From: a virus
IMG/VR virus record: IMGVR_UViG_3300033148_006102
Location: 1 to 64,000 of that record
Direction: 5' to 3' (one strand)
DNA length: 64,000 nt
The translations under genes and the position numbers were made by a program. This document shows positions 4,654 to 61,341 of the stretch, piece after piece. Below the pieces are notes generated by a model that was given only the letters and a program-made list of their open reading frames with translations, did not search any database and was not told the DNA's origin. The stretch's first letter is position 1. Each line of letters starts with the position of its first letter.

Positions 4654-4676
4654 TTGGGACTATGTCAAAATACCAG
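4654..4676 (+). repeat. 23-bp dyad site, copy 1
   Basis: TTGGGACT-ATGTCAA-AATACCAG immediately after a TAA stop. Confidence 0.8.
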
Positions 4677-4707
4677 AAACGCGCTCTTGCATGGGGCGCG
4701 TTTCTTC
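4676..4707 (+). terminator. Probable intrinsic terminator
   Basis: Stem GAAACGCGCTC/GGGCGCGTTTC with 7-nt loop and a short T-rich tail. Confidence 0.55.
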
Positions 4708-4732
4708 GTATCATCTTTCGCGGAGCTGCGAC

Positions 4733-5290
4733 ATGCCAGAAAACATTGATCCGCAATATCTTGCGTTCGTACAGGAACGTTTTGTAGCCCTTGAGAGCAC
4801 ATGGGAACTGCTGTGTGCTCACAAGATCATACCAACTGAAAAGGGCGCACGGTTGGAGCGATGTAAGCTGGCATCATCGATAGCGTACCGACAGTTGGTG
4901 GAAACAGCGGAAGCGGTAGAACTTGAACCGCTTTGGGTAGATCCCGGTTCGATCGAAGAACAGGATGGTACGCTGGTATTGAAGCCAGGTATCCTCGATC
5001 GACCGGAAGGGCGATGGCTACTTGAAGTTGGTAATGCACGATTGGGTATTTGGTTTGCATACCAGCGCAGAGCATTTGATCACGAAAATCTTCAGAAGAT
5101 TACGCTAATCGGATTGCACTTTGCGCAGAAGGCGTTGGAAGTACCGACGTCTGTGTTACAGATCGTGCAGAAGGTGATGGGATACACAGACCAAGCTGAG
5201 CTCAAGGGCGGTACGGCTATGCGAGGATACTACTATCTTGAAGAGAACCAGAACGCAAACGCATTGAGGATCAGAGTCCAAGGATCATGA
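4733..5290 (+). CDS. Hypothetical protein
   Basis: ATG with GGAG RBS inside the tracked ORF 4691-5290. Confidence 0.6.
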   Translation: MPENIDPQYLAFVQERFVALESTWELLCAHKIIPTEKGARLERCKLASSIAYRQLVETAEAVELEPLWVDPGSIEEQDGTLVLKPGILDRPEGRWLLEVGNARLGIWFAYQRRAFDHENLQKITLIGLHFAQKALEVPTSVLQIVQKVMGYTDQAELKGGTAMRGYYYLEENQNANALRIRVQGS

Positions 5291-5577
5291 AAAGACAGCG
5301 CGTTAAAATTTACGCAAGCAGTACCAAGGGCAGTCCGTACGTACCGGCTGTCCGATATGGAATCCAGACCGACAAAGGTGGTGTAGCTATTGTCGTGAAT
5401 GAACGCGACGACAGCTTCTTCTTGTACGAGGTGGACCGTAAAGAGGGTATGGTACACTCCGTGAGATTGACACCGGAGGTCATTACTGCTTTACTAACAG
5501 GCACTGGTGAAAAACCACAGCCTGTTACAGTTCCGATTCAGGAACTGAACTTGCCAGCGTTTCCGTGGGAGCAATGA
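5287..5577 (+). CDS. Hypothetical protein
   Basis: ATGA overlaps at both ends. Confidence 0.6.
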   Translation: MKRQRVKIYASSTKGSPYVPAVRYGIQTDKGGVAIVVNERDDSFFLYEVDRKEGMVHSVRLTPEVITALLTGTGEKPQPVTVPIQELNLPAFPWEQ

Positions 5578-6188
5578 TGGAGAAGGAATTAGCTGACTTT
5601 GTAGAAAAGCGTATAGCCGCAACTGTAATGGGCAACGGCACAGTACGTATGGAGCAGCTATTGCAGTTGCATGACCATTTACCTCGCGGTTATGGCATCA
5701 TGCGGCCGGTGGCGTTTGGAGATTATCCGCACCAAGAACAGCAGATGCCCCTGATTCATTGTTGTGAGTTTTACTACACCACAGGTGTTCATGACGAGCT
5801 CGAAGCGCACATTTGGTACAGCGACGAGTATCGTGACGGATTCCATCGTGTGATGCGGATATGGTTACCGCAGTGGATACGAAATGGCCGTTCGACACTG
5901 GGTGCGCTCATGCCGTACATGAACATGGAATTGGAAATGATGCAGCCGCGTCCTTTCATTGAAATGTTTCAGAACGGTTTGGATGAGTATACGCGCATGT
6001 ATGGTAATGACGCCGTTGCTATGCAGGTTGTGGCGAAGCATTGGCAAAACAAGTATACGGAAGACGAATTGGAGTCATTCCGCGATTCTTCAAGAAACCC
6101 ACCTTCGCTGATATGGTCGGTTAAAGCGGGTTTGGATACGCTGGCGAAGGCGGCACAGGCCCCACCCAAGGAGACTCAGAATGAATGA
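5574..6188 (+). CDS. Hypothetical protein
   Basis: Translationally coupled ORF. Confidence 0.6.
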   Translation: MMEKELADFVEKRIAATVMGNGTVRMEQLLQLHDHLPRGYGIMRPVAFGDYPHQEQQMPLIHCCEFYYTTGVHDELEAHIWYSDEYRDGFHRVMRIWLPQWIRNGRSTLGALMPYMNMELEMMQPRPFIEMFQNGLDEYTRMYGNDAVAMQVVAKHWQNKYTEDELESFRDSSRNPPSLIWSVKAGLDTLAKAAQAPPKETQNE

Positions 6189-12357: not shown

Positions 12358-13047
12358 GTGATGAAGAACCTCAGTGACGAGCTTCTGGCGGTTCGTGCGA
12401 AGACCGATAACCAGGCCAAGAACGAACTGGTACGTCGTTTCGCGCCCACAGTGACGACGCGATCGAACATGTACCGTGGTGTAGCGGTTCCCCAGCCGGC
12501 TATCTACGGTGAAGGACTTCGTTTGGTTCAATATGCAGCGGAGACATTCAAACCCACCAAGGGCGCCAAGTTCTCGACTCACCTGGAGAACCATTTACGG
12601 CGGATGTCTCGATACGTAAATACGCATAAGAACATTGCCCGCATCCCACCAAGTAAGCAAATGCGTATGGGGTTGTTCCGGTCACGTGCAGCGGTATTGC
12701 GCTTGCGGTTAAGTCGAGAACCGGCGCCAGAAGAATTGTCGGAGGATCTAGGATGGTCCGTAAAAGACGTAGTGGACCTGATGAACTTGGAGCGGCGTGA
12801 GCTGGCTAGTTCAGATCTCGTCGGGGAAATGGATACTGCGCATTTTGATCGTATGCGGGAGACAGCTGCGTTCGTGCGTTTTGAGTTGCGGCCTGAAGAG
12901 AAGGTCGTGTTTGATTATCTCTACGGATGGCACGGTCGTATGCAAACGGACAATGTACAGCAGATTGCTATGCATTCTGGCGTGAGTACGGATAAGGTGT
13001 ATCGAACCATCCGCAAGATCAAGGATCTGACACAGAGGCATCTATGA
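12358..13047 (+). CDS. Phage RNA polymerase sigma factor (sigma70 family, FliA-like layout)
   Basis: Region 2 GAKFSTHLENHLRR; region 3 REPAPEELSEDLGW; region 4 HTH VQQIAMHSGVSTDKVYR. Confidence 0.85.
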   Translation: MMKNLSDELLAVRAKTDNQAKNELVRRFAPTVTTRSNMYRGVAVPQPAIYGEGLRLVQYAAETFKPTKGAKFSTHLENHLRRMSRYVNTHKNIARIPPSKQMRMGLFRSRAAVLRLRLSREPAPEELSEDLGWSVKDVVDLMNLERRELASSDLVGEMDTAHFDRMRETAAFVRFELRPEEKVVFDYLYGWHGRMQTDNVQQIAMHSGVSTDKVYRTIRKIKDLTQRHL

Positions 13048-13958
13048 TAACGGAAGCACAAGCACGCATGTTGGCGGAAGCCATACTGGATAAACTGGGT
13101 TCACGCTTCAGGCCGCAAGCTGAAGCTACGCAAGGTCCGCGCTCTGTTGTGGCACCTGCGGTTGAGAATCCAGTGCCCCGAGCAGGTAGATCTGGTATTG
13201 GAGCACGTGATGCTGGCGGCGGGACAACTGGTAAGCGCGAGACACAATCAGCGCCAGCGGAAGGATTAACAGCTCTGGCAGCGGAACTATTTGATGCCAA
13301 GTCGACAGGTATGGCAACTGTGCATAGTGGCGGTACCGGTGGATCTACGAAAGGAACAGTATCGCCGTTTGTACGTGATTCGGCTAAGGGCGGCGCGCGT
13401 ATGGGGTTGAACTCCACGCCAGCTTCTGTGCAAGCACCGAAGAAGCCAGGTATCGTTACAGCGGCGTATGTAGGTAGTCAGGTTGGGGAACTAAAAATGC
13501 GGCTGGGTACGAAGCCCAAGAAGCCAGTTGTGATCAAGTCGACCGAGAAGAAGGCCGACATGGGCAAGGAACACGAGCGACGTTATATCCTGAATGCACT
13601 GCCGCCGTCCGCGAAGAAGGGCTCGAAAATCAAACAAGGGATTATGGTAAAGTCCCAGAAAGGATACTCAAGGATTCGCGAACAGGACGGGAAGTACACG
13701 ATGACAGCCAAATACTTCCCGCTGCACCATGAGGCAGAGACAGAGATATCGAAGGAGATCTTCGATACCTTGTGGCCGAAAGTACAAGATCAGCAGATCA
13801 AGACGCGCTACAAGATTTCAACGCCGGATAAGAATGAATGGATTGTCGACGAGTTTGAGGACGGAAAAGTTATTGCAGAAGTGGAAATGCCACGGAAGAA
13901 CGGTAAAGTGTCTATTCCTGATGATTTCGATGTGAAGACGGCATACCCGTATAACTAG
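13044..13958 (+). CDS. CYTH-domain protein with long low-complexity N-terminal extension
   Basis: EHERRY (ExExK/R), IKQG, SRIR, TMTAK, EAETEI, KTRY, WIVDEF, IAEVE motifs. Confidence 0.8.
   Translation: MITEAQARMLAEAILDKLGSRFRPQAEATQGPRSVVAPAVENPVPRAGRSGIGARDAGGGTTGKRETQSAPAEGLTALAAELFDAKSTGMATVHSGGTGGSTKGTVSPFVRDSAKGGARMGLNSTPASVQAPKKPGIVTAAYVGSQVGELKMRLGTKPKKPVVIKSTEKKADMGKEHERRYILNALPPSAKKGSKIKQGIMVKSQKGYSRIREQDGKYTMTAKYFPLHHEAETEISKEIFDTLWPKVQDQQIKTRYKISTPDKNEWIVDEFEDGKVIAEVEMPRKNGKVSIPDDFDVKTAYPYN
13636..13658 (+). repeat. 23-bp dyad site, copy 2 (intragenic)
   Basis: AAGGGATT-ATGGTAA-AGTCCCAG. Confidence 0.65.
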
Positions 13959-18607: not shown

Positions 18608-20695
18608 ATGACGCTTAAAAATCCTATGAGTGATTTCCCAATTGCCGACGCCCTGCTCAATAAAGAGGCAGAAGGAATGAGCGCGCTCTCTTTGGTGCGT
18701 GAAGATTTGGACGCACAGCAGTACATGCAGGCCGTTGAGAACCTTCGTCAGCGTGAATCTACAACGTTGCAGATGATGCAGCAGAGCGGCGCTGATCCGA
18801 CTATGGCTGGTGGGTATCAAGAGGAATTGGCGCGCACGCGACAGAATTACCTCACGGCTAAGGCGCTTTACGAAGCCAAGGCTATGGGGAAGGACAGTAC
18901 TGTTTCACTGAAAGACGTGAATGAACCTTCGCTAGCTGCATTGGTCAGAATGCCACCTCCCGGACTCGACACCGAGCCACAGAAGGAAGCTCCAATGACG
19001 GCCGCCCCAGGATCACCTGGCGAGGCGGCCAAAGCACAGGTAGACCAAGCGGTAGGTAGCGGAGGCGGTGATGCAGAGGGACCACCCGCTTCCGATTCTC
19101 CACCGGAGGCGTCTCACGAGGACATCGCCGCCTCTCCTTTTGCGCAAGCACTAAGCAGCCCGGACATGGGCGATGCAGATATGGCCTCAGAACCACCAGC
19201 TGAGGCACTACCACCTGAAGCTCCACCAGAAGAGATGCCGCCCGAGGGTATGACACCAGAGGAAGAACTGCCACCGGAGCAGCAATTGCTCGCCGGTAAA
19301 ATGGCAGAACTCGAATGGGATGCGGTTGATACCCTTCTCAAGAAGGTCGGTATGGTTGCGCCTACCGCACAGCTGTCGACGTTGAAGGATATGTGGCCAC
19401 AGCTCGGCCCGAATACGCGGCGCGGCGCGGCTGAGAATATCTTCAGTCAGTATCATCAGCAGGGCAGGCCTATTGAAGAGGTACCGCAAGCGCTGACTAA
19501 TTTTTTGACTCGTGTGAGTCCGATGCCACAGGCATTGTATCCCACGAAGCAGGGAGAAGATGAAATGTTCAATGGCGCACAGGCGATGCTGAAGCGTGCA
19601 AAGGATAAAATCCCTGGTGGTTTGGCTGACAAGAAAGATCCGAATTCTTTCTGTAAGCGGCAGATGCGCATGGGACGCAAAGTCGAAATGGAGCATACCG
19701 ATAGTCCTGCGGTAGCTGACGAAATTTCGCGCGACCATCTTACAGAGTTCCCAACTGATAAACTGCCAAAGGGCGAAGGTTATTATGACGAACTTGATGA
19801 GATGGAAGCGGAAATGAAAGACAAGATGAAAGGTAAAAAAGAAGCTCATGTGTTGTTGAAGCACGCGGCGAAACCTTCAGCAGGTCTTTCCAAGAAGCAG
19901 AAGTCTGACGTTGCGCGTAAAGCCCGAGCCGGCAAAGATATCGGCAAGAAGGGCAAAGGCTTTAAAGCTGTGGCAGAGAAGGCGCGTGCAAGTGGTGCGC
20001 GTGATCCTGATGCTGTTGCCGCGGCTGCGATGTGGAAGAACATCAAACGTGGGACTATAGAAGAATCCCAGATTGAGAAATTCGCGGAAGCGATGTGGGG
20101 CGAGATTTCACAGGATGATCTCGAAGCGCTATATGAGGCAGTGTTACCGGGGCAAGGAAAGACTGCGGCGGCAATCGTTTGGCCGAAAGTTGAGGCATAC
20201 CAGAAGCTCGCAAGTTCCCCAGAGCAGAAAGTTCCAAAGGACAGTGAGCCAAAGGATGGCAAGCAGCCCGCAAAGCCTGAGTCGTCAGCGCCCAAGGCTA
20301 ACTACAACAATAACCAATCCACCAATCCGTATTCCAAGCAGGATCACGGTACGAATTTGTTGCCAGCGAATGTACAGAAGCCCCAAGCTGGGCCGAAGAT
20401 TGATGAAACGCCAGTGTCGGATATCAACAAAAAGTGGGATGAGACCATCGGTGCTGCAGCTGAGGCTGTGAAGAAGGCGTACGCAGATAAGCGCGCGCAG
20501 GCTGGTACGATCGGTACGCAGGGCATGCCCACCTCGCCGGTGCAACCGCAGGGCGGAGGCGTAGGTAAAACTTTAACCTCGCTCGGATTGGGCCAGCCAG
20601 GCGGTCTGATGTTTGGTGCCAAGAACCGAGCAGGCAACATGAATGTTGGTTCAGGTATGCAAGGGATAAACGCAGCTAACTCGCCATCAGTCTAA
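18608..20695 (+). CDS. Modular K-x-A/G protein with a DUF5661-like domain (putative head cargo polyprotein)
   Basis: MGRKVEMEHTDSPAVADEISRDHLTEF...YYDEL; about 10 K-x-A/G motifs between modules. Confidence 0.65.
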   Translation: MTLKNPMSDFPIADALLNKEAEGMSALSLVREDLDAQQYMQAVENLRQRESTTLQMMQQSGADPTMAGGYQEELARTRQNYLTAKALYEAKAMGKDSTVSLKDVNEPSLAALVRMPPPGLDTEPQKEAPMTAAPGSPGEAAKAQVDQAVGSGGGDAEGPPASDSPPEASHEDIAASPFAQALSSPDMGDADMASEPPAEALPPEAPPEEMPPEGMTPEEELPPEQQLLAGKMAELEWDAVDTLLKKVGMVAPTAQLSTLKDMWPQLGPNTRRGAAENIFSQYHQQGRPIEEVPQALTNFLTRVSPMPQALYPTKQGEDEMFNGAQAMLKRAKDKIPGGLADKKDPNSFCKRQMRMGRKVEMEHTDSPAVADEISRDHLTEFPTDKLPKGEGYYDELDEMEAEMKDKMKGKKEAHVLLKHAAKPSAGLSKKQKSDVARKARAGKDIGKKGKGFKAVAEKARASGARDPDAVAAAAMWKNIKRGTIEESQIEKFAEAMWGEISQDDLEALYEAVLPGQGKTAAAIVWPKVEAYQKLASSPEQKVPKDSEPKDGKQPAKPESSAPKANYNNNQSTNPYSKQDHGTNLLPANVQKPQAGPKIDETPVSDINKKWDETIGAAAEAVKKAYADKRAQAGTIGTQGMPTSPVQPQGGGVGKTLTSLGLGQPGGLMFGAKNRAGNMNVGSGMQGINAANSPSV
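20049..20071 (+). repeat. 23-bp dyad site, copy 3 (intragenic)
   Basis: GTGGGACT-ATAGAAG-AATCCCAG. Confidence 0.7.
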
Positions 20696-22509: not shown

Positions 22510-22690
22510 TTGGGGAGACGGGAAGTCGTACTCGGCGCGGATCGAGGCGGTTCTGAATGATGACTGTGATCATGACTGGGGACCGGCGGAAAAGGATGGT
22601 TATCGTTCCTGTAATAAGTGTGGCGATATTTCGCTCCATCCGGCCATAGTGGAGGCACATCGGGATAAAACGCGGAAGGAGACGATGTGA
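22487..22690 (+). CDS. Small Zn-finger-like protein
   Basis: CDHDW...CNKCG. Confidence 0.45.
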   Translation: MRYQMGVDWGDGKSYSARIEAVLNDDCDHDWGPAEKDGYRSCNKCGDISLHPAIVEAHRDKTRKETM

Positions 22691-23097
22691 ACACATTGAA
22701 GAATAAATCAGATGTCCTTGAGCATGCTGTTGCAGTTCATGCCGGCAAGGCCAAGCGCCTGCCATTGAAGGCATGCTTGCCTGACGCGTACGCATACGTT
22801 CAGGAATTTCGCGACAAGGCCATCGCAGATATCCGCAAACACAAGATTGTGGATATACATATGGAAGAAGAGCTGATACAACAGTCGTATCACGAGCTGG
22901 GATTTCAGCATAAACACATTTGGCGCATGCATAACGAAGACTTAGGTATGTACGTGTGCGCTGTCTGCGGCATGCTGGGTACAGTAACGGAATGTCAGGA
23001 GGCATCCAAGCAGGATGAGTCTGACTACACCGAATGGGAAAAGAAGGTCCTCGAGGAAGAGTACAAGATCCACGAGGGCGCGGAGGAAGAACTATGA
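22687..23097 (+). CDS. Hypothetical protein with Zn ribbon
   Basis: HKHIW...CAVCG; coupled. Confidence 0.55.
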   Translation: MNTLKNKSDVLEHAVAVHAGKAKRLPLKACLPDAYAYVQEFRDKAIADIRKHKIVDIHMEEELIQQSYHELGFQHKHIWRMHNEDLGMYVCAVCGMLGTVTECQEASKQDESDYTEWEKKVLEEEYKIHEGAEEEL

Positions 23098-29601: not shown

Positions 29602-30224
29602 TGGTTAAGCCAAGAACCAAACAAGAACGGATGGTGCTTGTCTTCTATAAGGAAGCACAAGAAAAAGTGGTTGAGTTAGTGGCTTTTATGCGTGAGCAGC
29701 TTGTGGGCCGCAAGGTGGTACTCACCAAGATGGAGCCTAAATACCACACTACTGATACATATCGGCGCAAAATAACGGTTGATGGGTTTCCAGTATTTAT
29801 TGCGGCATCGAAGACGCAGTACATGCTACGTGGAGAAACTCCGCGCTGGTGGATACGCATTAAAAGTAAGGTTAATACTTGGACAGAACGTAAATATGCG
29901 TACTACCAGATAGGTAAGACAACAAACCTAGCTGCGGCGGTTAAAACCATGTGCAGGCGTATCCTGCGTTGGCAGCAAGAATCACGTGATTTGCATGAGG
30001 CTAAGGTCGCGCGCAAATTACGTGAAGTACAAACAAAGAAGGTGTTCAAGAAATACGCGCGCTTCGGTAAAGGCCGCAAGAACGTGGCGTGTTTGGTTGA
30101 GGGCGTAGATAACGTGGATCTGCATGACTGGAATGATCGATATGAGATTGAGTTCAAAACGGATAGCCTCGACACAATGGCGGAGCTACTCGCGAAGCTC
30201 AGGAAAGCGAAGATCATAAAATGA
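29601..30224 (+). CDS. Basic hypothetical protein
   Basis: Lys/Arg-rich; AAGGA RBS. Confidence 0.55.
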   Translation: MVKPRTKQERMVLVFYKEAQEKVVELVAFMREQLVGRKVVLTKMEPKYHTTDTYRRKITVDGFPVFIAASKTQYMLRGETPRWWIRIKSKVNTWTERKYAYYQIGKTTNLAAAVKTMCRRILRWQQESRDLHEAKVARKLREVQTKKVFKKYARFGKGRKNVACLVEGVDNVDLHDWNDRYEIEFKTDSLDTMAELLAKLRKAKIIK

Positions 30225-30823
30225 CAGACGATAATATAGATATGTTTGGGCCGTTTGCCGGAAGCAAAATGGACATGCTTATGCGGCATATGGCTTTAAT
30301 GGCCGTATGGAAGCTGTTTCAGGTTGAGCAGATGATGAAGGAGTCGCAGGTCGATTCGCGGCACGGTCCGATGGAATCAGATAAGGATAGTTTTGGTGCC
30401 TTCATGTATTGGATGCATCGCGTAATGCGCGAGGCGCTCGATGATGAAGGCATTAAATACGCTGAATCCGCAACGGAACAGACAATAACTGTGTCTGAGA
30501 CAGCATGGGAGAAGCTACATCTGCAGGCGGATATGGCTACCTGGGTTAATAGCATAATCCCAGATACCAATCTGCCCATGAAGCTGAAGGAAGAGGTTCA
30601 AGAGCTTCTCGAAGCTATGCAGCATCCGAAGATACGGCATTCTGAGGTGGACAACACATCGGAGATGGAAGACGAGCTGGCAGATGTGCTGCTAGTGCTA
30701 ATGGTGATCGCGCATCGATGCCATGTAGATCTTCTGCAGGTCGGCGTCAACAAACTCGAGGTGAATAGAAAACGCAAGTGGGAAAAGCAGCCAGGTGGTA
30801 CTTACCACCATGTGGAGGATTAA
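30221..30823 (+). CDS. Protein with C-terminal MazG-like NTP pyrophosphohydrolase domain
   Basis: KLKEEVQEL...EDELADV...NKLEVNRKRKW. Confidence 0.8.
   Translation: MTDDNIDMFGPFAGSKMDMLMRHMALMAVWKLFQVEQMMKESQVDSRHGPMESDKDSFGAFMYWMHRVMREALDDEGIKYAESATEQTITVSETAWEKLHLQADMATWVNSIIPDTNLPMKLKEEVQELLEAMQHPKIRHSEVDNTSEMEDELADVLLVLMVIAHRCHVDLLQVGVNKLEVNRKRKWEKQPGGTYHHVED
30541..30563 (-). repeat. 23-bp dyad site, copy 4 (intragenic, reversed spacer)
   Basis: Minus strand CTGGGATT-ATGCTAT-TAACCCAG. Confidence 0.7.
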
Positions 30824-34440: not shown

Positions 34441-34441
34441 A

Positions 34442-35221
34442 ATGGATACGCTTATTGTAGTTGAGCCGCATTTCGAGCTCATTACACCACGGGAAGATCT
34501 TGGGCGCATGCTGAAACTGCTCGAGGCTGCCGGCCGGACTTGCTACAAGTCTGAGGCAATGATAAAGGAAGACTCGGCCGGCAAGTTCATTCAAGGTATT
34601 GTCAAGCGCGGTCATGAGTCCGTGATCGAGCACTGTGTTATCACAGGGCGTTTTGTGGGCGATAGGACCATGTCGCATCAGCTGGTGCGGCATAGGATCG
34701 CGGCCTATTCACAGGAATCTCAGCGATATTGTGATTATGGCAAAGTCTCAGCCATGCAGATCGTGGCGCCACCGGATACTAGGTTGCCGCCAGGAATATA
34801 CGAACGGGACGAGAACAAGCTTATCCGCTTTACCAAACGTACTGGTGAAGGCCCATTCAGGCTGCAGGCCTACATGGCAGAGGATAATTGGTCTATTGCG
34901 GAAATGGCAATAGCCAAAGCTTTTCTTGGTATCAACTTCGATGCTTACTGGACATATCAGTGGTTGCGCAATCACGGCCTCAAGCCAGAGGACGCGCGGT
35001 TGGTGCTTCCAGGTGGATCCAAGACCGAAGTGGTGACTACCTTCAATTTGCGGATGTGGCGGCACGTGTTTGAGGAACGCGCGCTCAATCCACATGCGCA
35101 GTGGCAAATCAAGAAGATCATGCGCCAAGCATTGGAGATCTTCGGGGAAGAGTTGCCAGAATTGTACGGTGACCAGTTGGAACGCTTGAAGGAACAAGTG
35201 GCAAATGAACAAAGCAGTTGA
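34442..35221 (+). CDS. thyX: FAD-dependent thymidylate synthase
   Basis: GHESVIEH, HQLVRHRIAAYSQESQRY, PEDARLVLP, HAQWQI. Confidence 0.95.
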   Translation: MDTLIVVEPHFELITPREDLGRMLKLLEAAGRTCYKSEAMIKEDSAGKFIQGIVKRGHESVIEHCVITGRFVGDRTMSHQLVRHRIAAYSQESQRYCDYGKVSAMQIVAPPDTRLPPGIYERDENKLIRFTKRTGEGPFRLQAYMAEDNWSIAEMAIAKAFLGINFDAYWTYQWLRNHGLKPEDARLVLPGGSKTEVVTTFNLRMWRHVFEERALNPHAQWQIKKIMRQALEIFGEELPELYGDQLERLKEQVANEQSS

Positions 35222-36769: not shown

Positions 36770-37144
36770 TTGTCGAATGATGAATTAGCTGCATCCACAT
36801 CGATAAAGACATCCATTTCGCTATTAGCGGATATTGCTCCGTCATTAAAAGAGCTGATGAGCATGGATTTGGATGCGCTCGATGACGACAAAGACGCGAA
36901 AACAGAATGGGTAATACATGCTTATACGCTATCTCGGGCGCTTAAAGAATCAGCGGAGATGTATTTGAATGCCTGTGATGCGCTGCGTGAACGCGTACTT
37001 ACGGCATTAAGCGAAGAGGCAGTGGGTAATTTGGATAAATTGGCGCATAGCGTGTTTCACGATAACATGACGGTTTACTATAAAAGGGAATTCAGATGTA
37101 CGCGTGATGCATTGAATGAGGACAAGACAGATGATCAGTCGTGA
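36770..37144 (+). CDS. Hypothetical protein; true start may be ATG 36750 via a frameshift/indel at a T5 run
   Basis: The coupled ATG at 36750 is in a different frame. Confidence 0.5.
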   Translation: MSNDELAASTSIKTSISLLADIAPSLKELMSMDLDALDDDKDAKTEWVIHAYTLSRALKESAEMYLNACDALRERVLTALSEEAVGNLDKLAHSVFHDNMTVYYKREFRCTRDALNEDKTDDQS

Positions 37145-37448
37145 TGGCCTAACCGGTAGATGGTGGACGCTTGGACCAGAAACACCATGGCTGCCACACC
37201 CAGATGAGTGGGTAAATGTCCGTGGGAACCATACTGTGTACTCGTGGATGTTTTATCATCCTGGCTCAGAGAAATGGGAGCCAGTATTTTCGTTGCGCGA
37301 AGCTCGTGATCTAGCGAAGCATGGCTATGTACTGGTATGCTTTACGGAGCACGACGAAGTGAATCGGTATATTGAGGACCAGCGTCGACAGGAAGCGGCG
37401 AAGTGCGGTCAAGACTTCGGGCCGGACAAATGGCGGCCAAATTATTAG
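37131..37448 (+). CDS. Trp-rich hypothetical protein
   Basis: GAGG RBS. Confidence 0.5.
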   Translation: MISRDGLTGRWWTLGPETPWLPHPDEWVNVRGNHTVYSWMFYHPGSEKWEPVFSLREARDLAKHGYVLVCFTEHDEVNRYIEDQRRQEAAKCGQDFGPDKWRPNY

Positions 37449-37451
37449 AAT

Positions 37452-37474
37452 CTGGGATTATGGCAAAATCACAG
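37452..37474 (+). repeat. 23-bp dyad site, copy 5 (overlaps a start codon)
   Basis: CTGGGATT-ATGGCAA-AATCACAG. Confidence 0.8.
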
Positions 37475-40147: not shown

Positions 40148-40181
40148 AAAAGAAATAGGGGCACATGCCCCTTTTCTTTTT
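40148..40181. terminator. Bidirectional intrinsic terminator at the convergence point
   Basis: AAAAGAAATAGGGGCA-CA-TGCCCCTTTTCTTTTT. Confidence 0.8.
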
Positions 40182-40389
40182 ATCTGAGGATCGACGGGCG
40201 GCGCCGAATTAGCGCAACCGCGTGATCTGTAGTTCTAGGCAGAAACATCGATGTAACAACAGCGTGGCTGCCAAAGAGCGCCGCCCAGAGCCATTGATGC
40301 ATGGCAATACAGTACAGGGCAACACCAGTTGTTACAGGCAGGCTGAACAACAGGCCTAGACACAGGCTTATCAGCAACATGCGGCGCAT
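40180..40389 (-). CDS. Small two-TM membrane protein
   Basis: AAGGA RBS; two hydrophobic segments. Confidence 0.6.
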   Translation of the reverse strand: MRRMLLISLCLGLLFSLPVTTGVALYCIAMHQWLWAALFGSHAVVTSMFLPRTTDHAVALIRRRPSILR

Positions 40390-40404
40390 GGTTGTTTCCT
40401 TTCT

Positions 40405-40578
40405 TTATTCGTATGTGCCGACGCAATCAGCGTCAGACGACTGGGTAGTTTGTGCTAGTATTGTGCGCATCAGGGGTTCCAGTTCGAAATCCGCGTCGCG
40501 CAGGTCTTTCAGCTCCTCGTTGTCGTAAACCTCGACAACTTCTGTTTCTTGTTCGACTTGTGTGAGGTAAACGAACAT
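40405..40578 (-). CDS. 57-aa acidic protein (not in ORF track)
   Basis: MFVYLTQVEQETEVVEVYDNEELKDLRDADF...; fills the gap exactly. Confidence 0.55.
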   Translation of the reverse strand: MFVYLTQVEQETEVVEVYDNEELKDLRDADFELEPLMRTILAQTTQSSDADCVGTYE

Positions 40579-40827
40579 TTAGAGGCGATACCATTCTTCG
40601 CAAAACGGTAGGCCGATGACGGTCAGTCCGTCTTCGTTTTCGGCGACTTTGAGTACGCCGTAGTTGGTGTACTTCCAGTGGCTGCATTCGCTGTAGATCC
40701 AGGCAATACCTTCTTCGGCTGCGCTGGCGTCAGCTTTGGTGGCAAGTTTGACGTCGTCATCTGGTAGATTTGTAAAACAGATCACGAACAGCGCCGCGAT
40801 AAGCATAATGAATAGAACGAGTCTCAT
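40579..40827 (-). CDS. Small exported or membrane-anchored protein
   Basis: AAGGAG RBS; MRLVLFIMLIAALFVIC. Confidence 0.6.
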   Translation of the reverse strand: MRLVLFIMLIAALFVICFTNLPDDDVKLATKADASAAEEGIAWIYSECSHWKYTNYGVLKVAENEDGLTVIGLPFCEEWYRL

Positions 40828-40875
40828 GGTCTCTCCTTGAGTAGAGGGTTGAGAAATATGGTTGTTCTTCAGTGG

Positions 40876-40905
40876 CTTATGCCACGAAATAGGCTATTTT
40901 TGGCA
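40876..40905 (-). promoter_or_regulatory. 30-bp promoter-like motif, copy 2
   Basis: TGCCAAAAATAGCCTATTTCGTGGCATAAG. Confidence 0.6.
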
Positions 40906-40907
40906 GT

Positions 40908-41267
40908 TTATGAGACATACCACGTTGCTTGGGGATGGAGCAGCGCCCACCCAAGTAATACATTGCAGGCGTGACCAGCGTTGCCGCGGGTTGCTGCCCA
41001 GTAGTCTTCGTCTTTATCTATCCCGAGTTCACGTACCATACGTTCAAGTTCAGGTACGGTATCCGTAGCATGACGTCCATGCAGATTACGGAGACTGAAT
41101 CCGAGATCCCGCCAGATGGTCGAGTAGTTGTACGTGATACATATGTCGGCCGCACAGCTGTCAATAGGATTGCAGTTGAGGTCGGCCATCAAGATACTGC
41201 CTTCGCGGTGAGGTGGTACTGAGACTGCGCGGCCGTCTGGGTTTTCGAGTCGTACAGTGAAGCTCAT
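40908..41267 (-). CDS. Conserved phage hypothetical protein (ITYNYS...DYW.AT.GN type)
   Basis: ITYNYS, LHGR, EDYWAATRGNA motifs. Confidence 0.65.
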   Translation of the reverse strand: MSFTVRLENPDGRAVSVPPHREGSILMADLNCNPIDSCAADICITYNYSTIWRDLGFSLRNLHGRHATDTVPELERMVRELGIDKDEDYWAATRGNAGHACNVLLGWALLHPQATWYVS

Positions 41268-41461
41268 TTGACACCATCTTCTAAGCCGAATTTGTACGCC
41301 ATACGAATGAGTTTGCAGCTGAACCACGAGTCGGCAGACGGAACGACTCCAACTTTCTTACCATTTCGATAAACGTTATGGCGTTGAATCGGCGCATCAC
41401 ATGTTGGTGAGTATGGTTCCTCTTCAAAACGTATTTCGAATTTGGGTGGCGTATCAGCCAT
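41264..41461 (-). CDS. Small hypothetical protein
   Basis: AAAGGA RBS; MADTPPKFEI. Confidence 0.55.
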   Translation of the reverse strand: MADTPPKFEIRFEEEPYSPTCDAPIQRHNVYRNGKKVGVVPSADSWFSCKLIRMAYKFGLEDGVK

Positions 41462-41471
41462 AGCTTCCTTT

Positions 41472-41723
41472 CTATTCAGCCCACTCACCGTGCAGGTGCG
41501 CACTCAGTTGCTTTCGGTCGAAGCATTTACGTTCAAAATAAATGCCTTGGATGAAACCAATGGTATGCATGGTGGCTGAGATATCGTTTTTCTTGGCAGA
41601 TTTCAGAGCGACCTAGCAGAGAGCGTATGCCATCGTGTGCGATGGACTTACCAATCGTTGGCCGCTGTACCGCATATAACGATGGATCAAATCAATGATT
41701 TTGTCTTGTGTGAGAGCAGGCAT
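41472..41723 (-). pseudogene. Gene interrupted by an in-frame TAG at 41613-41615
   Basis: AAAGGA RBS and ATG; reading through gives 83 aa ending 10 nt before the next start; C-terminal half has a GFIQG motif. Confidence 0.6.
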
Positions 41724-41732
41724 AATTCCTTT

Positions 41733-42284
41733 CTAGAATAATTCGGCCATGCGTTCATCAAAGAACCCATCAGGCCAATCACTCGTAAAGTCGCCTTCGT
41801 CATTGATTTCCAAAGTGACGTTTTCGCCATCTTTGGTTATGTATATGACTGTGACATCTTTGGGTGTGATGCACGGTGTGTCTTTATCTTCGTGATGTTC
41901 GCGGATGCGACGCAGAATGCGAAGCATGAGGTGCTCGCTGTGCGTCTCCACGAAGATAGTGTTACCGAGTTTGTGCGACTCAATTAATAAATCGCCAAGT
42001 TCGACCTGGACCTTTGGGTGCAGGCCGGTCTCTGGATACTCGATTCCGATGATGTCGTTTTCGTTGCCCAGTAGCGCATTTACTACGGGTTCGATCATTG
42101 TCCAACCGAAACCACCGATAATGAGATTGGACATCATCCATGTACGACCAGCATTGTATTTGGTAGGTCGTCGGTAGTTGAGGTTGCGCCGTGCGTCAAT
42201 GTATGTGCATTTGCGAGGGTCGCACAACCCTTTAAGGAGTGAGGATTTACCTACGCCGGTAAATCCAAAGATGAGAGTGATCAT
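41733..42284 (-). CDS. Minimal ABC-type ATPase (AAA_21-like plus DUF3696-like C-terminus)
   Basis: GFTGVGKS, IEYPETGLHP, VETHSEH, DWPDGFFDE. Confidence 0.75.
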   Translation of the reverse strand: MITLIFGFTGVGKSSLLKGLCDPRKCTYIDARRNLNYRRPTKYNAGRTWMMSNLIIGGFGWTMIEPVVNALLGNENDIIGIEYPETGLHPKVQVELGDLLIESHKLGNTIFVETHSEHLMLRILRRIREHHEDKDTPCITPKDVTVIYITKDGENVTLEINDEGDFTSDWPDGFFDERMAELF

Positions 42285-42829
42285 TCGTCCTCCGTACAAT
42301 TGGTGGCAATAGCTTCACCACCGATGGTCACTTCATTTGGCAGCGGATCTGTATAGATTTGTGCTTCCATCCCACAGTTGTGACAGCGCAAAATTCGATA
42401 CAGGCCGCCATGCGCCTTGTTCGTATGGGTAACGTACACAAGTCGGTGGCCGCGGTACTTCATCGTTGTTCTTGCGTCGTGCTCCATCAATTTCATGCGA
42501 TTCCAGTCGGATGTTAATTTCGCTGGAACGCGCGCACGATCGTGTAGCAGTGAAAGGTATGCTTTGTACGCTAGCTGCAGGTCATCCGGTGCGTAGTACT
42601 CGCCGTTGAACAAGCGCAAGCCACCATCGTCCGTATGACAAGAGCATACAGCCCACCAGCCACGCGCGTCTTCAGGTGCGGCGCAGTCATCTAGATGTTC
42701 CGCAGTGATTTGTGCGAGGCTGATTGTTTCATATGGAACATGAGGGTCCAGCGGATGTACTGCGGTCTCCGCGATTATGTTTCGGTCCTCTAGCTTCGTT
42801 AGAATGAAGAGGCCGTTAATATCCATCAT
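42281..42829 (-). CDS. Hypothetical protein with C-terminal CxxC
   Basis: GGAG RBS; coupled. Confidence 0.55.
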   Translation of the reverse strand: MMDINGLFILTKLEDRNIIAETAVHPLDPHVPYETISLAQITAEHLDDCAAPEDARGWWAVCSCHTDDGGLRLFNGEYYAPDDLQLAYKAYLSLLHDRARVPAKLTSDWNRMKLMEHDARTTMKYRGHRLVYVTHTNKAHGGLYRILRCHNCGMEAQIYTDPLPNEVTIGGEAIATNCTEDE

Positions 42830-43053
42830 GTAAACATCTCCTTTTGATGGGGCGGCTCAGCTGGGAATTCGAGCGCGCCATACGCGTCGTCGGTAATTCC
42901 GCAAAGCCGCCATTGTTTGTCTTGAAGGCGGAACCAATAGATGCGTTCGAGTTGAATGCCTATGGTCCCGCCCAGTTCCAGGTAGGTCGAAACCTTATGC
43001 TCAGAGCATAGGGTTTTGATCAATGTGTTCACCGATCGCGCGCTGGTACGCAA
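42826..43053 (-). CDS. Small hypothetical protein
   Basis: Fills the operon gap; start uncertain. Confidence 0.45.
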   Translation of the reverse strand: MRTSARSVNTLIKTLCSEHKVSTYLELGGTIGIQLERIYWFRLQDKQWRLCGITDDAYGALEFPAEPPHQKEMFT

Positions 43054-43250: not shown

Positions 43251-43280
43251 CTTATGCCATGAAAAGCTGGTATTTTGGCA
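43251..43280 (-). promoter_or_regulatory. 30-bp promoter-like motif, copy 3
   Basis: TGCCAAAATACCAGCTTTTCATGGCATAAG, overlapping dyad copy 6. Confidence 0.6.
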
Positions 43281-43289
43281 TAATCCCAG
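43267..43289 (-). repeat. 23-bp dyad site, copy 6
   Basis: Minus strand CTGGGATT-ATGCCAA-AATACCAG in the divergent gap. Confidence 0.8.
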
Positions 43290-43358: not shown

Positions 43359-43829
43359 ATGACTGATATGACGTTTATGTGGCAGGACGCAGAGGCTTGC
43401 CAGCACGCGTCGCGTGCGTTGGACAAGCTACGTTGGCGCTTTAACTCGGACATCGAGACTTCGCCAGATTTCGATGGCGAGGATGAGGAAGGGCTGCAGC
43501 AGGTTCGCTGGGCGTTGCAATCGCTTCGGGGTATCATGTGTTTGGAGATCCCGGATGAGAGCGACCACGCAGCTGGACCGATCTGGAAGACTTTGCTCGA
43601 GATGATGCGGGATCGCTTCGCTGAGAAGTTCAAGAATCACACGACTAACGAAGTTCTGACGTCATGGGAGAAAGCGTGGGAGAAATTCTGCGCACAGCTC
43701 TATCAATTCCCGGAAGAACCGTTTCGCCTCACATCTGATGAACAGGCTCTTGTGTATCCTATACTGTTGGAGTGGCTTGATCGTTTGATTGCCGAACAAC
43801 AAGATCTCCAAATGAAGATGTACGCATGA
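43359..43829 (+). CDS. Hypothetical protein
   Basis: GGGAG RBS. Confidence 0.6.
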   Translation: MTDMTFMWQDAEACQHASRALDKLRWRFNSDIETSPDFDGEDEEGLQQVRWALQSLRGIMCLEIPDESDHAAGPIWKTLLEMMRDRFAEKFKNHTTNEVLTSWEKAWEKFCAQLYQFPEEPFRLTSDEQALVYPILLEWLDRLIAEQQDLQMKMYA

Positions 43830-44044: not shown

Positions 44045-44054
44045 TGCTAGCGAG

Positions 44055-46256: not shown

Positions 46257-46258
46257 CT

Positions 46259-46462: not shown

Positions 46463-46507
46463 CTATGCTGATAGAGGACAAATGACCTGTTTTGACCAGG
46501 AGTAGCA

Positions 46508-47233: not shown

Positions 47234-47245
47234 TCGAGGAGTAGC

Positions 47246-47785
47246 ATGTACTATAACATCTATTTTGCGAAGGGCTTCATGGACAAGCTTGCGGCGCTTG
47301 CGCCGGACGAGAAGATTGCGTCTGCGGCAATGGCCCAGCTCGAGGAATTCGAAAAGCTCGCAAAGATGACGCCGTTTGGTCGTACAGCATTGACCGCGGG
47401 CCTTGGTGCGTTGGGCGGCATTGGTGGTCTGGGCGGCATCTGGGGCTCAATGGGACCATCTGCTGAAGAATCACAGATCCAACGGCTGCAGAACCAACTT
47501 GGCAATGTGCAGCAGAAGTACCAAGGACTTGAGCAAACTTCTGGTGCGCAGCAGCAGGCTCTTGCGCCATTACTGCAGAACATGTCACACGAAGATTACA
47601 TGAAGTTCATGGCGTCACAGGGTCATAAAGATCCATTTGCCGCGGAGGCAGGCGATGTTCCGGATTGGTTGGAACCTGAACTGACTCGACGTAAACAACA
47701 ATTCATGCAGGCAGGCTTGCATCAGGCGCTGCAACCAACGCCGGCGCCGGTGCCGACAGCGGCACCACCAGTAGCCGGAAAGTAG
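47246..47785 (+). CDS. Protein with GF-x-x-KL and K-x-A leader, hydrophobic Gly segment
   Basis: GAGGAG RBS; MYYNIYFAKGFMDKLA...EKIA...EKLA. Confidence 0.65.
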   Translation: MYYNIYFAKGFMDKLAALAPDEKIASAAMAQLEEFEKLAKMTPFGRTALTAGLGALGGIGGLGGIWGSMGPSAEESQIQRLQNQLGNVQQKYQGLEQTSGAQQQALAPLLQNMSHEDYMKFMASQGHKDPFAAEAGDVPDWLEPELTRRKQQFMQAGLHQALQPTPAPVPTAAPPVAGK

Positions 47786-47789
47786 GCTT

Positions 47790-47812
47790 CTGGGACTATG
47801 CCAAAATCCCAG
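47790..47812 (+). repeat. 23-bp dyad site, copy 7 (best match)
   Basis: CTGGGACT-ATGCCAA-AATCCCAG. Confidence 0.85.
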
Positions 47813-47871
47813 TTATCGGGGGTTTCTACCAGTTGAGGTCTTCGATAGCCCCTGGACAAAGGGGGAGTGTA

Positions 47872-48434: not shown

Positions 48435-48439
48435 GGCTT

Positions 48440-49522: not shown

Positions 49523-49537
49523 GTAAGGAGTTATGAC

Positions 49538-55467: not shown

Positions 55468-55476
55468 GGAGTGGCT

Positions 55477-56040
55477 GTGTACGAGAACGTTATTATTAGT
55501 CGTAACGACGATCGTGTTCTTTTGTCGAACTCGGAAGAGATGGCTGTGCTTGACGCAGCTGATTGGGTTATTGACGCGGATATGGCAGCGGTTTCAGATG
55601 AGAATGGTAAGCCGAACGTGCCGCGTAAGTACTGGAAGCTTCCGAATGTCGGCGAGACTGTCGTTACTGAAATGCCGCAAGAAGAGAAAGATGTGGTGGA
55701 TGCCGACGAGGTTGCCGCGTACAAACTACAGAAGAAGCGGGAACTCGCCGACGAATGTCACGCATACATTATCAATAAATGCCCTGCGCATAATCAGATC
55801 ACGTTGTTTGGGATGCACTCGATCGCGCATCGAGAAAACAAGAACAATCGTGCGGATTACATTCAAGCGTTTTGGAATTGGTTGGATGAAGTAATCGCAC
55901 ACAACCACGTGAAGCAAGCCGAGGTCGATGCTGCGGCAGATACGGCGGCAGTTGATGCGGTGGCCCAGGACTTCAGTACGTTTGACACAGACTGGGGTAC
56001 GGGTTGGTTTATCGCGGAAGCACGTGCTATTCCTGATTGA
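55477..56040 (+). CDS. Tail fibre assembly chaperone-like protein
   Basis: Follows the fibre gene; PRKYWKL...EMPQEEKDVVD...KLQKKRELADE; AAGGAG RBS. Confidence 0.6.
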   Translation: MYENVIISRNDDRVLLSNSEEMAVLDAADWVIDADMAAVSDENGKPNVPRKYWKLPNVGETVVTEMPQEEKDVVDADEVAAYKLQKKRELADECHAYIINKCPAHNQITLFGMHSIAHRENKNNRADYIQAFWNWLDEVIAHNHVKQAEVDAAADTAAVDAVAQDFSTFDTDWGTGWFIAEARAIPD

Positions 56041-56041: not shown

Positions 56042-56064
56042 TTGGGATTATACTAGATTACCAC
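56042..56064 (+). repeat. 23-bp dyad site, copy 8 (degenerate)
   Basis: TTGGGATT-ATACTAG-ATTACCAC, 1 nt after the TGA stop. Confidence 0.55.
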
Positions 56065-58620: not shown

Positions 58621-58695
58621 TAGACTGCCAGAAGCTTGGTCACAATCAATTTATACATATGCGGCGGTAGGCGTTTGGCTATCTTGACCAAGCCT

Positions 58696-60768
58696 ATGCC
58701 GAAACGGCGTCTGCCGCCGCGCCAATTTGAAAGATTCCAAATGTCATTAGACACATTAACTGCAATTGAGATCTTGGGGCCAGATGGTCCAATCGCAAAG
58801 TATCTCGACGATTACGAGATGCGTCCACAACAAGTGACGATGGCGCAAGCTGTGGAGAATGCGTTCATCAATGAGAGAAATCTGATTGCGGAGGCGGGAA
58901 CCGGAGTTGGTAAGTCATTTGCTTATCTGATACCAGCTATTCTGACTTCCCGTCGAACACGGCAACCAGTGGTAATATCAACTGGAACGATCGCGCTGCA
59001 GGAGCAGTTGCTACGAAAAGACATACCGTTTTTGCAGGAGGTTTTGAAGGATATCCCATTTACGGTGGCGTTGGCAAAAGGACGCTCGAACTATGTTTGT
59101 CCTCGGCGCCTAGCGAAGGCCGAATTTCAGCCGAAGGATAAGCGTATTCTTGATCGTATCCGCCACTGGGCGGCGCGCACTAAGGACGGTTCCCGGACGG
59201 ATCTGGATTTCAAGGTATATCCGTATCTATGGCAACAGGTATGCAGTGACCGGTATGACTGCAAAAAGAACCGGTGCAAAGGCTGCTTCTATTACTATAT
59301 GCGCTCAAGCCTGGCGAAGGCAAACATCGTGGTGGTCAACCACAGTTTGTTGTTGATCAACGCGATGCTGCCACCCAAGGCGCGTATCATTCCGAATACA
59401 AGTCGATTGATTCTGGATGAGGCTCACGAGCTTGAAGATATCGCAAGCACAGCGTTCGGAACGGAACTACGGCGTTCACAGATTGATTATCTGTTGAGCG
59501 ATATAGCACGTTTCATGCGTAATGACGCAGATGCCATGGGAGTCACTGGGCTCCTTAGTCCGCTGAATCACGCTGAAGAAGCTATGCACCCAGCGTATGC
59601 AGATTTGAAGGCTGCTATGGGCCGCGGTAAGTGGAGTTCGCGTGCCAAGCGCATTAAGATCCCTCTCGAGTCGCGCTCGGTGGACGCGCTTATTGGTGCA
59701 TTGGCACAACTTGGTAAGCTATTCGAATATAAGCATTCGGAAGCGATCGCCGAGTACGGGACTGAGGATGAGGCTGTGATCCGCATGGACTCGATTATCC
59801 AACGTTCTATGTCCTTTGCGCATCAGTTGGAGCAGTTTGCGAACGTGGAAGCACCGGATGCATATGTGTATTGGATTTCGCAGACTGGGGCGAAGACAGA
59901 CAACATTACGTTGAATATACGGCCGATCGAAGTGGCAAAGCTATTTGAAGAATACATCTTAGATCAGGCTAGCAGCGTAATCCTCACAAGCGCAACATTG
60001 GCGACGGACGCAGCGGATAGTCCTTGGCCGTTTGGTCATTTCCGGCAGCGGCTGGGATTCAGCATGGGCGGAGAAGATTTCTTCAATACCGGCAACAACT
60101 ATCCAGGTTCCACAGCAGCGGACGAGCTACAGGTGGATACGCCTTTCAATTATGCTGAGCAGGTTTCGCTGTACATTCCATACATAGCAGAGCCGAAGGC
60201 AGAGACGTATCTTGATGAGGTGACGGAAGAGGTTCTCGAAGCGATTAAAAAGTCGGCCGGTGGTGTGCTTGTATTATTTACGAGCTATCTGGCGCTGAAT
60301 ACGGTGTACAGTAATGTGGAAGATCGCTTTTATGCAGATGGCGTAAAAGACGTGGTATGCTTGAAGCAGGATTCCGGCGGAAATCGTGGAAAGTTGTTGG
60401 ATGCTTTTGTTCATGCGCCGCAGAAGGCTGTACTATTTGGTACGGAAAGTTTCTGGAAGGGTATCGACGTACCTGGCGACAGTTTGACGACTGTGGTCAT
60501 TACGAAGTTGCCGTTCCCAGTACCGACAGATCCGCTGCACGAAGCGCGGATGGAAGCAATTGAACGGCACGGCGGAGATCCGTTTGTGAGGTATTCGGAA
60601 CCGCATGCGCTTATCAAACTCAAGCAAGGCTTCGGACGCTTGATTCGTAGATCTACGGATAAAGGGCGAGTAGTAATATTGGATAGTCGTTTGTTGTCAC
60701 GGCGCAAAGGCTATGGGAAACGCTTCCTCGCAGCGTTACCACAGGTGCCGAGAGAAGATGACAATTGA
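58696..60768 (+). CDS. DinG/YoaA-family SF2 helicase
   Basis: EAGTGVGKS, KGRSNYVC, VVNHSLL, DEAH, LTSATL, LFTSY, SFWKGIDVPG, QGFGRLIR. Confidence 0.92.
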   Translation: MPKRRLPPRQFERFQMSLDTLTAIEILGPDGPIAKYLDDYEMRPQQVTMAQAVENAFINERNLIAEAGTGVGKSFAYLIPAILTSRRTRQPVVISTGTIALQEQLLRKDIPFLQEVLKDIPFTVALAKGRSNYVCPRRLAKAEFQPKDKRILDRIRHWAARTKDGSRTDLDFKVYPYLWQQVCSDRYDCKKNRCKGCFYYYMRSSLAKANIVVVNHSLLLINAMLPPKARIIPNTSRLILDEAHELEDIASTAFGTELRRSQIDYLLSDIARFMRNDADAMGVTGLLSPLNHAEEAMHPAYADLKAAMGRGKWSSRAKRIKIPLESRSVDALIGALAQLGKLFEYKHSEAIAEYGTEDEAVIRMDSIIQRSMSFAHQLEQFANVEAPDAYVYWISQTGAKTDNITLNIRPIEVAKLFEEYILDQASSVILTSATLATDAADSPWPFGHFRQRLGFSMGGEDFFNTGNNYPGSTAADELQVDTPFNYAEQVSLYIPYIAEPKAETYLDEVTEEVLEAIKKSAGGVLVLFTSYLALNTVYSNVEDRFYADGVKDVVCLKQDSGGNRGKLLDAFVHAPQKAVLFGTESFWKGIDVPGDSLTTVVITKLPFPVPTDPLHEARMEAIERHGGDPFVRYSEPHALIKLKQGFGRLIRRSTDKGRVVILDSRLLSRRKGYGKRFLAALPQVPREDDN

Positions 60769-60789
60769 TTATTCCGGAAGGAGGAAATT

Positions 60790-61317
60790 GTGGGGCGAGG
60801 CATGCGGAAAGGAACGAGCAAGCGCCGCACACGAAAGAAAAGGAGAGCGATTCCGGAGCCGATACCGAAGCATGAAGGACCTGATTTATCTGAACCGATT
60901 CCAGGAGACGGAGATACAGGTGGGATCGATACTCACAACTTCATATTACTGAAAGGCGAATACACAGGTGAGCGGTTGACTCGAGTACCGCTATCGTACC
61001 TACGCTGGATGGCTGCATCCGGGCACGAACATGCAGATTACGCCGAAGCAGAAATGCAGAGGCGCGGTACTCGAAAAGCGACCATTCATTTAACCGCGCA
61101 CGCTATTGACCGAGCATCGTTGAAGTGTTTATCTGTGTGGATCGCAACGCGGCAAGAAAATGAAGGAATCTATTCTTGGTTGATGCGGATAGCTGAAGAA
61201 GCGTTGAAGAACGGGAAGCAGGACAGCCGCGATAAGGAAGTCTACCTGTACAAAGGTGTGCGATTTATCTTCGTGTTTGACGGCAAGTTACCTGTATTGA
61301 AGACGCTGGCCGACTAA
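60790..61317 (+). CDS. Protein with DUF3820-like (GxYxGxxLxxVPxSYLRW) domain
   Basis: KGEYTGERLTRVPLSYLRWM; second domain HAIDRAS. Confidence 0.6.
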   Translation: MGRGMRKGTSKRRTRKKRRAIPEPIPKHEGPDLSEPIPGDGDTGGIDTHNFILLKGEYTGERLTRVPLSYLRWMAASGHEHADYAEAEMQRRGTRKATIHLTAHAIDRASLKCLSVWIATRQENEGIYSWLMRIAEEALKNGKQDSRDKEVYLYKGVRFIFVFDGKLPVLKTLAD

Positions 61318-61318
61318 T

Positions 61319-61341
61319 TTGGGATTATGGCATTATCACAG
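61319..61341 (+). repeat. 23-bp dyad site, copy 9
   Basis: TTGGGATT-ATGGCAT-TATCACAG, 1 nt after the TAA stop. Confidence 0.75.

Follow-up and report, generated by a model that had tools for sequence, protein, structure and literature searches.

Twenty-seven evenly spaced palindromes in a 195-kb phage genome are probable binding sites of a dimeric protein

The first 64 kb of the virus record IMGVR_UViG_3300033148_006102 (positions 1–64,000; hereafter the window) carry a dispersed inverted repeat, which raises the question of what a site that recurs both between and inside genes does for the virus. The window opens a complete record of 195,108 bp with terminal repeats, from an uncultured phage, and given an exact terminal overlap of 114 bp we treated the map as circular. 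A preliminary description of the window had listed nine copies and proposed a genome-wide system of sites that might be a regulator's operators, recombination sites, or sites for genome organization or packaging. Searching the whole genome, we found that the element is a 23-bp palindrome, CTGGGAYTATG-N-CATARTCCCAG, that occurs 27 times, and the idea of a genome-wide system holds. It is highly probable that the 27 copies are duplex-DNA binding sites of a two-fold symmetric protein, one that the phage itself probably encodes. The most likely function, which we put forward tentatively, is a network of transcriptional gates, operators or roadblocks.

The half-site of the palindrome is CTGGGAYTAT. 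A symmetrised weight matrix (information content 26.7 bits) was trained on 18 intergenic sites, leaving 9 of the 27 sites outside the training set. All 27 score at least 14.7 bits, and the next best position in the genome reaches 8.4. Matches were decisively more numerous than in codon-preserving shuffles (27 against 0.21 per shuffled genome), one of the comparisons by which the preliminary description had said that the system would stand or fall. Exact matches to the pattern as first drawn numbered four, against none in 100 shuffles, and exact half-sites numbered 16, against 0.55 in codon-block shuffles. Wherever two half-sites lie within 60 bp of each other, they do so at a single spacing of 13 bp and always in inverted orientation. 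Half-sites with one mismatch number 48 in all, including the paired ones, against 18 by chance, and singles occur near expectation. A chance origin of the sites is excluded. The repeat had originally been read as 8-bp arms around a 7-bp spacer starting with AT; this was an under-reading of a symmetry that extends over 11 + 1 + 11 positions, and the centre seemed asymmetric because several copies in the window carry CAAAAT in one half.

All nine copies first listed in the window are real, with scores of 19.4 to 35.4 bits and gaps of 4.5–10.5 kb between them, but two others had been missed. As described, five of the nine follow a stop codon by 0–4 nucleotides (nt). The copy at 4654..4676 is intergenic and comes right after the stop of 4171..4653 (29.1 bits); that at 37452..37474 lies 3 nt past the stop of 37116..37448 (33.0 bits); and the top-scoring copy of all, at 47790..47812, lies between the stop of 47246..47785, 4 nt away, and 47833, 20 nt further on (35.4 bits). 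The weakest of the nine, at 56042..56064, begins 1 nt past the stop of 55471..56040 and is followed by a hairpin (19.4 bits), and the copy at 61319..61341 begins 1 nt past the stop of 60790..61317, its 3′ end overlapping the AGGAG ribosome-binding site of the next gene (28.4 bits). A sixth, at 43267..43289, occupies the divergent gap between a minus-strand island (40180..43053) and 43359..43829, again as first described (34.3 bits). The others listed lie within open reading frames (ORFs): 13636..13658 in ORF 13044..13958, in codon phase 1 and encoding GIMVKSQ (24.9 bits, outside the matrix training set); 20049..20071 in ORF 18608..20695 (22.5 bits); and 30541..30563 in ORF 30221..30823, in codon phase 2 (25.3 bits). 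The two missed copies are also inside genes, at 34729..34751 in thyX (24.5 bits) and, more weakly, at 22897..22919 in ORF 22687..23097 (16.3 bits, where the null expectation at 16 bits is 0.07 per genome). Immediately after the site at 4654, positions 4677–4706 of the window can form a terminator-like hairpin with the stem AAACGCGC/GCGCGTTT followed by a T-rich run, and the assumed ATG of the next ORF falls in its loop.

Many copies stand immediately past stop codons and just before ribosome-binding sites, where an RNA hairpin might act as a terminator, an mRNA 3′ stabiliser, an RNase III-like processing site or a translational operator, and a few would fold well (about −12 kcal/mol at 85046 and 194071). 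We oriented each site with transcription and scored its 11 symmetric pairs, which comprised 206 Watson–Crick, 15 G·U and 19 C·A combinations and 57 of other kinds. At pair 7/17 the choice between C and T in one half does not depend on the other half (10 Watson–Crick, 7 G·U and 9 C·A). Mean folding energies are −4.76 kcal/mol for the sense and −4.69 kcal/mol for the antisense strand, many sites fall between 0 and −3 kcal/mol, and no T-run was found after the sites. An RNA hairpin is unsupported because C·A pairs are as common as G·U pairs, leaving no sign of compensatory change, and because both strands fold equally. A protein dimer on duplex DNA, unlike a hairpin, would be expected to let the two half-sites vary independently. 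The pair counts, the folding energies and the missing U-tract largely refute the roles of terminator, processing site and translational operator, and we regard an RNA-level element as extremely improbable.

Although about 94% of the genome is coding, 18 of the 27 sites are found between genes or at their edges, and the gap is often little larger than the site. A stop codon lies 0–4 nt upstream of the sites at 97543 and 108870, as it does for the five in the window, and within the site itself at 74419, 122701 and 185856; the site at 122701 begins on the stop codon of the RNA polymerase gene. After these intergenic and gene-edge sites, the next start codon follows 1–21 nt downstream. The remaining nine sites fall within ORFs; all three codon phases are represented and the encoded peptides are unrelated, so the selected object is a DNA word and not a peptide. 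On the circular map, neighbouring sites are on average 7.2 kb and never more than 13.8 kb apart, with a coefficient of variation of 0.44. Short-gene regions have gaps of about 5 kb, and the structural region with its long genes has gaps of about 10–12 kb; measured in gene counts, the coefficient of variation is again 0.44. The analysis shows that the sites are genuine and symmetric, are under selection as DNA, strongly favour gene junctions and are evenly spaced; binding by a protein, its origin from the phage and an effect on transcription are our inferences.

Relatives of the phage that might carry the same sites proved distant. Megablast of 12 kb against GenBank phages returned no close relative, tblastn with the helicase and the RNA polymerase gave at most about 32% identity and no close phage relative, and a search for related loci with the helicase found none. 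Scans for the motif in viral, metagenome and genome collections returned 0, 6 and 24 single, unrelated matches, respectively, and no related genome with the motif. The 24 matches come from 596 Gb of prokaryote genomes, are scattered across taxa and number about what we would expect by chance, which argues that no sampled host uses the motif as a regulon operator. The genome encodes a fused β–β′ RNA polymerase of 2,375 residues in a single ORF (genome 115576..122703, with Rpb2_3 and Rpb2_6 followed by Rpb1_1, _2 and _5 matches). This polymerase belongs to a large, mostly metagenomic clade with 40–45% identity at best; fused polymerases of the same domains span about 1,975–3,760 residues, some with inteins, on contigs that reach about 215 kb and in many cases measure 170–215 kb. 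A cultured distant member of the clade is Salmonella phage Arash, in whose virions mass spectrometry detected RNA polymerase β (with the most spectra), β′ and sigma (PMC10585845).

Five relatives were examined around the polymerase gene. In one of them, NCBI contig JBQVBM010027594.1, the RNA polymerase is 43–45% identical to that of our phage and synteny around it is conserved. The 36.6 kb examined contain a 21-bp palindrome of a different sequence, TGGATYCCSGSCGGGAATCCR, at 606, 9153, 16738, 17789, 27584 and 29994, each copy with at most one mismatch. Its geometry equals ours, with 5-mer arms, an 11-bp gap and outer TGG...CCA, and the copies lie just upstream of gene starts, one of them 19 nt before the RNA polymerase stop codon. 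The preliminary description had looked to conservation in related genomes: no related genome has the sequence itself, but this one has a palindrome of its own with the same geometry, as would be expected if the protein and its sites change together. In the same stretch a junction of about 70 nt occurs twice at a distance of 1 kb (16729–16797 and 17780–17848), at the left edge of an 8-kb block of genes without a homologue in our phage. It includes a gene end, the palindrome, a ribosome-binding site and initial codons that encode MFAA, and the repeats may mediate gene gain in that relative. When 80 more relatives were screened for dyads, the sole candidates were weak, three-copy ones of other palindromes (L069, L121, L123 and L091), and the screen is insensitive, having missed our own polymerase region. 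An excess of TGGA-N14-TCCA in relative L018 was dismissed, since its interior is not common to the copies. The first 50 kb of Salmonella phage Arash contain no array.

What, then, would the palindrome bind? Half-sites that occur only as inverted pairs, and that vary independently, point to a duplex site for a two-fold symmetric protein. The operator of a dimeric protein, one of the options in the preliminary description, is the reading that best suits this pattern. One homodimeric, sequence-specific protein, most likely phage-encoded, would occupy all 27 sites, with each monomer reading the TGGGA (outer) and TAT (inner) blocks of one CTGGGAYTAT half-site. Sitting at gene junctions round the genome, it would gate the passage or initiation of RNA polymerase, and the sites together would form an operator or roadblock network that switches gene blocks together, in the manner of stoperators or of KorA/KorB-type global operators. 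We favour a role in transcription because the sites prefer junctions and because promoter-like hexamers adjoin some of them. Such hexamers are found beside the palindrome at four sites: TAGAAT abuts the left edge of 37452, TATAAT abuts 132601, TATACT precedes 85046 by 21 nt, and TTGGCA-17-TATTCT begins with the first base past 43267. A hexamer beside the palindrome, and not in it, is what an operator site looks like.

Several results weigh against this model of a transcriptional network. Pfam searches of 192 small proteins, together with targeted family searches, turned up no candidate binder. Apart from the sigma-like proteins, a clear helix-turn-helix was seen only in two HNH homing endonucleases; one of these, the tandem helix-turn-helix protein at genome 138746..139471, was considered as the binder and is implausible as a regulator, being an HNH/NUMOD4 homing endonuclease. 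It had already been noted that no cognate protein is recognisable in the window, and this still stands; the window does contain a sigma-like gene (12358..13047), with a Sigma70_r3 match and a possible C-terminal helix-turn-helix. The complete genome has neither an integrase nor a repressor and hence no lysogeny to maintain. It likewise has no HTH_3 protein of the Cro/CI type, its sole HTH_3 match being weak and inside a homing endonuclease, and because no Cro/CI-type gene is present an operator for lysogeny is unsupported. As for placement, six of the nine in-gene sites lie 100–650 nt from the next gene start, and the site at 150113 is in the last gene of a convergent block with no gene downstream, a placement that fits coverage of the whole genome better than control of a particular gene. 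Nor does gene regulation alone need the evenness of the array, which none of 20,000 random placements matched. Finally, the other four relatives examined around the polymerase gene (L018, L019, L026 and L027) have no array there.

These same features lend themselves to a role in genome architecture, in which a dimeric protein would loop, condense, anchor or load cargo along the DNA at regular intervals, for instance in preparing for packaging, in replication or in co-packaging the virion RNA polymerase, much as ParB–parS/KorB, Noc, SlmA and MatP arrays do. Besides the very even spacing, two stretches of about 33 kb without intergenic sites (4.7–37.4 kb and 142–175 kb) are filled by weaker in-gene sites, mostly mid-gene, and sites are present in early-type, replication and structural regions alike. 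The presence of RNA polymerase subunits and sigma in Arash virions (PMC10585845) makes a DNA-bound cargo conceivable. Against this stand the lack of ParB_N, SMC_N or type II topoisomerase (DNA_topoisoIV) matches in the complete genome and the finding that measuring the spacing in bases makes it no more regular than counting genes does. A purely physical role would also not need a preference for junctions, though coding sequence does not readily accommodate a 23-bp palindrome. We consider a role in architecture possible but rather unlikely. A more specific version, in which lineage-specific palindromes at even intervals dock a chromosome-organising phage protein throughout the little-studied β–β′ clade of about 170–215 kb, is distinctly doubtful. 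If true, it could mean, for example, that packaged polymerase and sigma are positioned for transcription everywhere on entry, or that the genome is split into regular loops, by a phage chromosome-organising system without ParB or SMC.

Another possibility is that the sites are promoters for the phage's own sigma and fused RNA polymerase, with transcription from the edge of the site and leaders that are very short or absent. The phage encodes two sigma-like genes besides the polymerase, and such a polymerase needs promoters of its own; no other motif is over-represented upstream of genes. One or both halves of most sites contain TGnCATAAT, CATAGT or CAAAAT, and TGnCATAAT resembles an extended −10 element. 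Promoter matches of the sigma-70 type are rarer than in shuffles at 36–50 kb of the window (8 against 14.6, sd 3.9), the genes downstream of the sites at 97543, 108870 and 122701 start 1–8 nt past the site with a weak Shine–Dalgarno sequence or none (a picture that is mixed overall), and 20 of 24 sites are followed directly by a purine. However, the sites have no polarity, since the better half and the CAAAAT variant both switch sides with respect to the direction of the genes; half-sites never occur alone; TGnCATART on its own hardly exceeds expectation (19 against 12); and the palindrome of the distant relative has a G+C-rich centre without a −10-like element. A terminator-like hairpin directly follows site 4654, the AGGAG at 61319 overlaps the end of the site, and the in-gene sites, mostly distant from the next start, include 150113 with no gene downstream. 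On balance, we judge promoters to be unlikely. A general TGnCATART or YATACTG promoter motif was also considered, and neither is enriched genome-wide. In the window at 36000–50000, terminator-like hairpins are commoner than in shuffles (23 against 13.1, sd 3.6). It is very unlikely that the palindromes are site-specific recombination sites, or a small self-spreading repeat without function for the phage. Inverted arms round a short centre superficially resemble recombinase core sites, and the preliminary description had entertained tyrosine-recombinase sites for cassette exchange or inversion. This part of it is not supported: the genome encodes neither a tyrosine nor a serine recombinase (PF00589, Phage_integrase, and Resolvase are unmatched in the complete genome, whereas PF00589 matches all control genomes), and recombination is unsupported because the enzyme is missing. 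The site is symmetric through its centre, which gives it no direction, and has no asymmetric crossover spacer of 6–8 bp; moreover, were all 27 sites active among essential genes, recombination would cause essential DNA to be lost or inverted. Copying is suggested by a near-identical 22-nt copy in two unrelated genes, 20049–20071 and genome 150113–150135, which agree at 22 of 23 nt in an unusual variant with the centre ATAGAAGAAT. They lie on opposite strands with unrelated flanks, in the same codon phase, and both encode GTIEESQ; the likeness could be copying between sites or convergent avoidance of an in-frame TAR stop. The palindrome-bearing junction duplicated beside the non-homologous block of the relative may similarly promote gene exchange as a side effect. 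Against these readings, the copy in thyX sits in a variable loop, directly after the conserved RHR...SQRY motif, that is only three residues longer than in solved ThyX proteins; the loop is not a clean seven-codon insertion, and an in-frame 21-bp insertion there is unsupported. Even spacing would not be expected of a selfish repeat either.

A simple ORF map gives a coding fraction of about 94% for the genome. Genes are on the plus strand up to 149.6 kb, except for the small minus-strand island at 40.2–43.0 kb, and on the minus strand from 149.6 kb to 194 kb. Most of the phage proteins have no family match. The second sigma-like gene (genome 148905..149681, Sigma70_r2 and r4) is the last of the plus-strand block. 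The HNH_3/NUMOD4 homing endonuclease at 138746..139471, with two helix-turn-helix motifs in tandem, is closely preceded by a perfect bidirectional terminator hairpin at 138693–138727; a second HNH_3 homing endonuclease is at genome 78818–79399. The gene thyX, at 34337..35221 of the window, encodes a flavin-dependent thymidylate synthase, and the first half of the genome also has family matches to a Dam-type methyltransferase, dCMP deaminase, MazG, RusA and PTH2. The minus-strand island, which lies inside the plus-strand region and is bounded by site 43267, contains a gene at 41733..42299 with matches to the C-termini of AAA_15/AAA_21 ATPases and to DUF3696, which suggests a fragment of a defence-type ATPase. 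For 27136–27750 of the window, Pfam gave weak coiled-coil-type matches and no α-CTD match. The phage looks virulent, with no sign of lysogeny, because integrase and repressor families are absent.

The array is unusually clean: its 27 sites are set off by a clear gap in score, are spaced very evenly and are kept even inside genes. With no signs of lysogeny, and with a polymerase and sigma factors of the phage's own, it cannot be dismissed as the repressor network of a prophage. The binder, if found, would reveal by what means a large virulent phage keeps a 195-kb chromosome coordinated or organised, and would provide an orthogonal pair of a DNA-binding protein and a 23-bp site.

Arrays of dispersed sites are known from several replicons. 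KorA/KorB of the IncP plasmid RK2 and ParB–parS use short palindromes round the replicon, on which a dimer coordinates operons and/or organises DNA; here, in contrast, ParB_N (PF02195) is absent, the site is longer and the replicon is apparently a virulent phage. The promoters and RNase III sites of T7, another phage with an RNA polymerase gene of its own, are highly conserved elements of about 23 bp in tiny gaps, asymmetric and pointing in one direction. Our sites, of similar length, likewise occupy tiny gaps along the genome, but they are symmetric, and the enzyme here is a fusion of the multisubunit type that comes with sigma factors. In Cluster A mycobacteriophages, the stoperators bound by the L5 gp71 repressor are asymmetric 13-bp sites, oriented with transcription, of an immunity repressor in temperate phages (PMC6550527). 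Like them, our sites number in the tens and are dispersed, largely off promoters, in short intergenic gaps (18 of the 27 between genes or at their edges); stoperators comprise about 30 dispersed sites, most of them likewise not at a promoter, and their motif changes with the binding protein between related phages (PMC6550527). Ours are palindromic and without polarity, and the genome has no repressor, integrase or partition genes. Our sites cannot be assigned to the stoperator family, whose members lack symmetry, follow the direction of transcription and depend on a lysogeny repressor.

Among published arrays, the nearest analogue is the repeat of Cluster O mycobacteriophages such as Corndog, a 17-bp palindrome, TGTTCGG-N3-CCGAACA, present in more than 30 copies and presumed to be bound by a DNA-binding protein (PMC4351075). 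Both arrays comprise about 30 copies genome-wide, between and inside ORFs, and show no orientation bias with respect to transcription, in Cluster O as judged from the central bases (PMC4351075). The two share neither sequence nor traceable descent: ours is 23 bp against 17 bp and more degenerate, whereas the arms in Corndog are invariant. Our array is also sparser, at one site per 7 kb in 195 kb, the Cluster O genome being much smaller, and our phage has its own RNA polymerase and sigma factors. Taken together, this kind of array is already known from Cluster O, and what is distinctive here is its even spacing and its carrier, a virulent-looking phage with a fused RNA polymerase.

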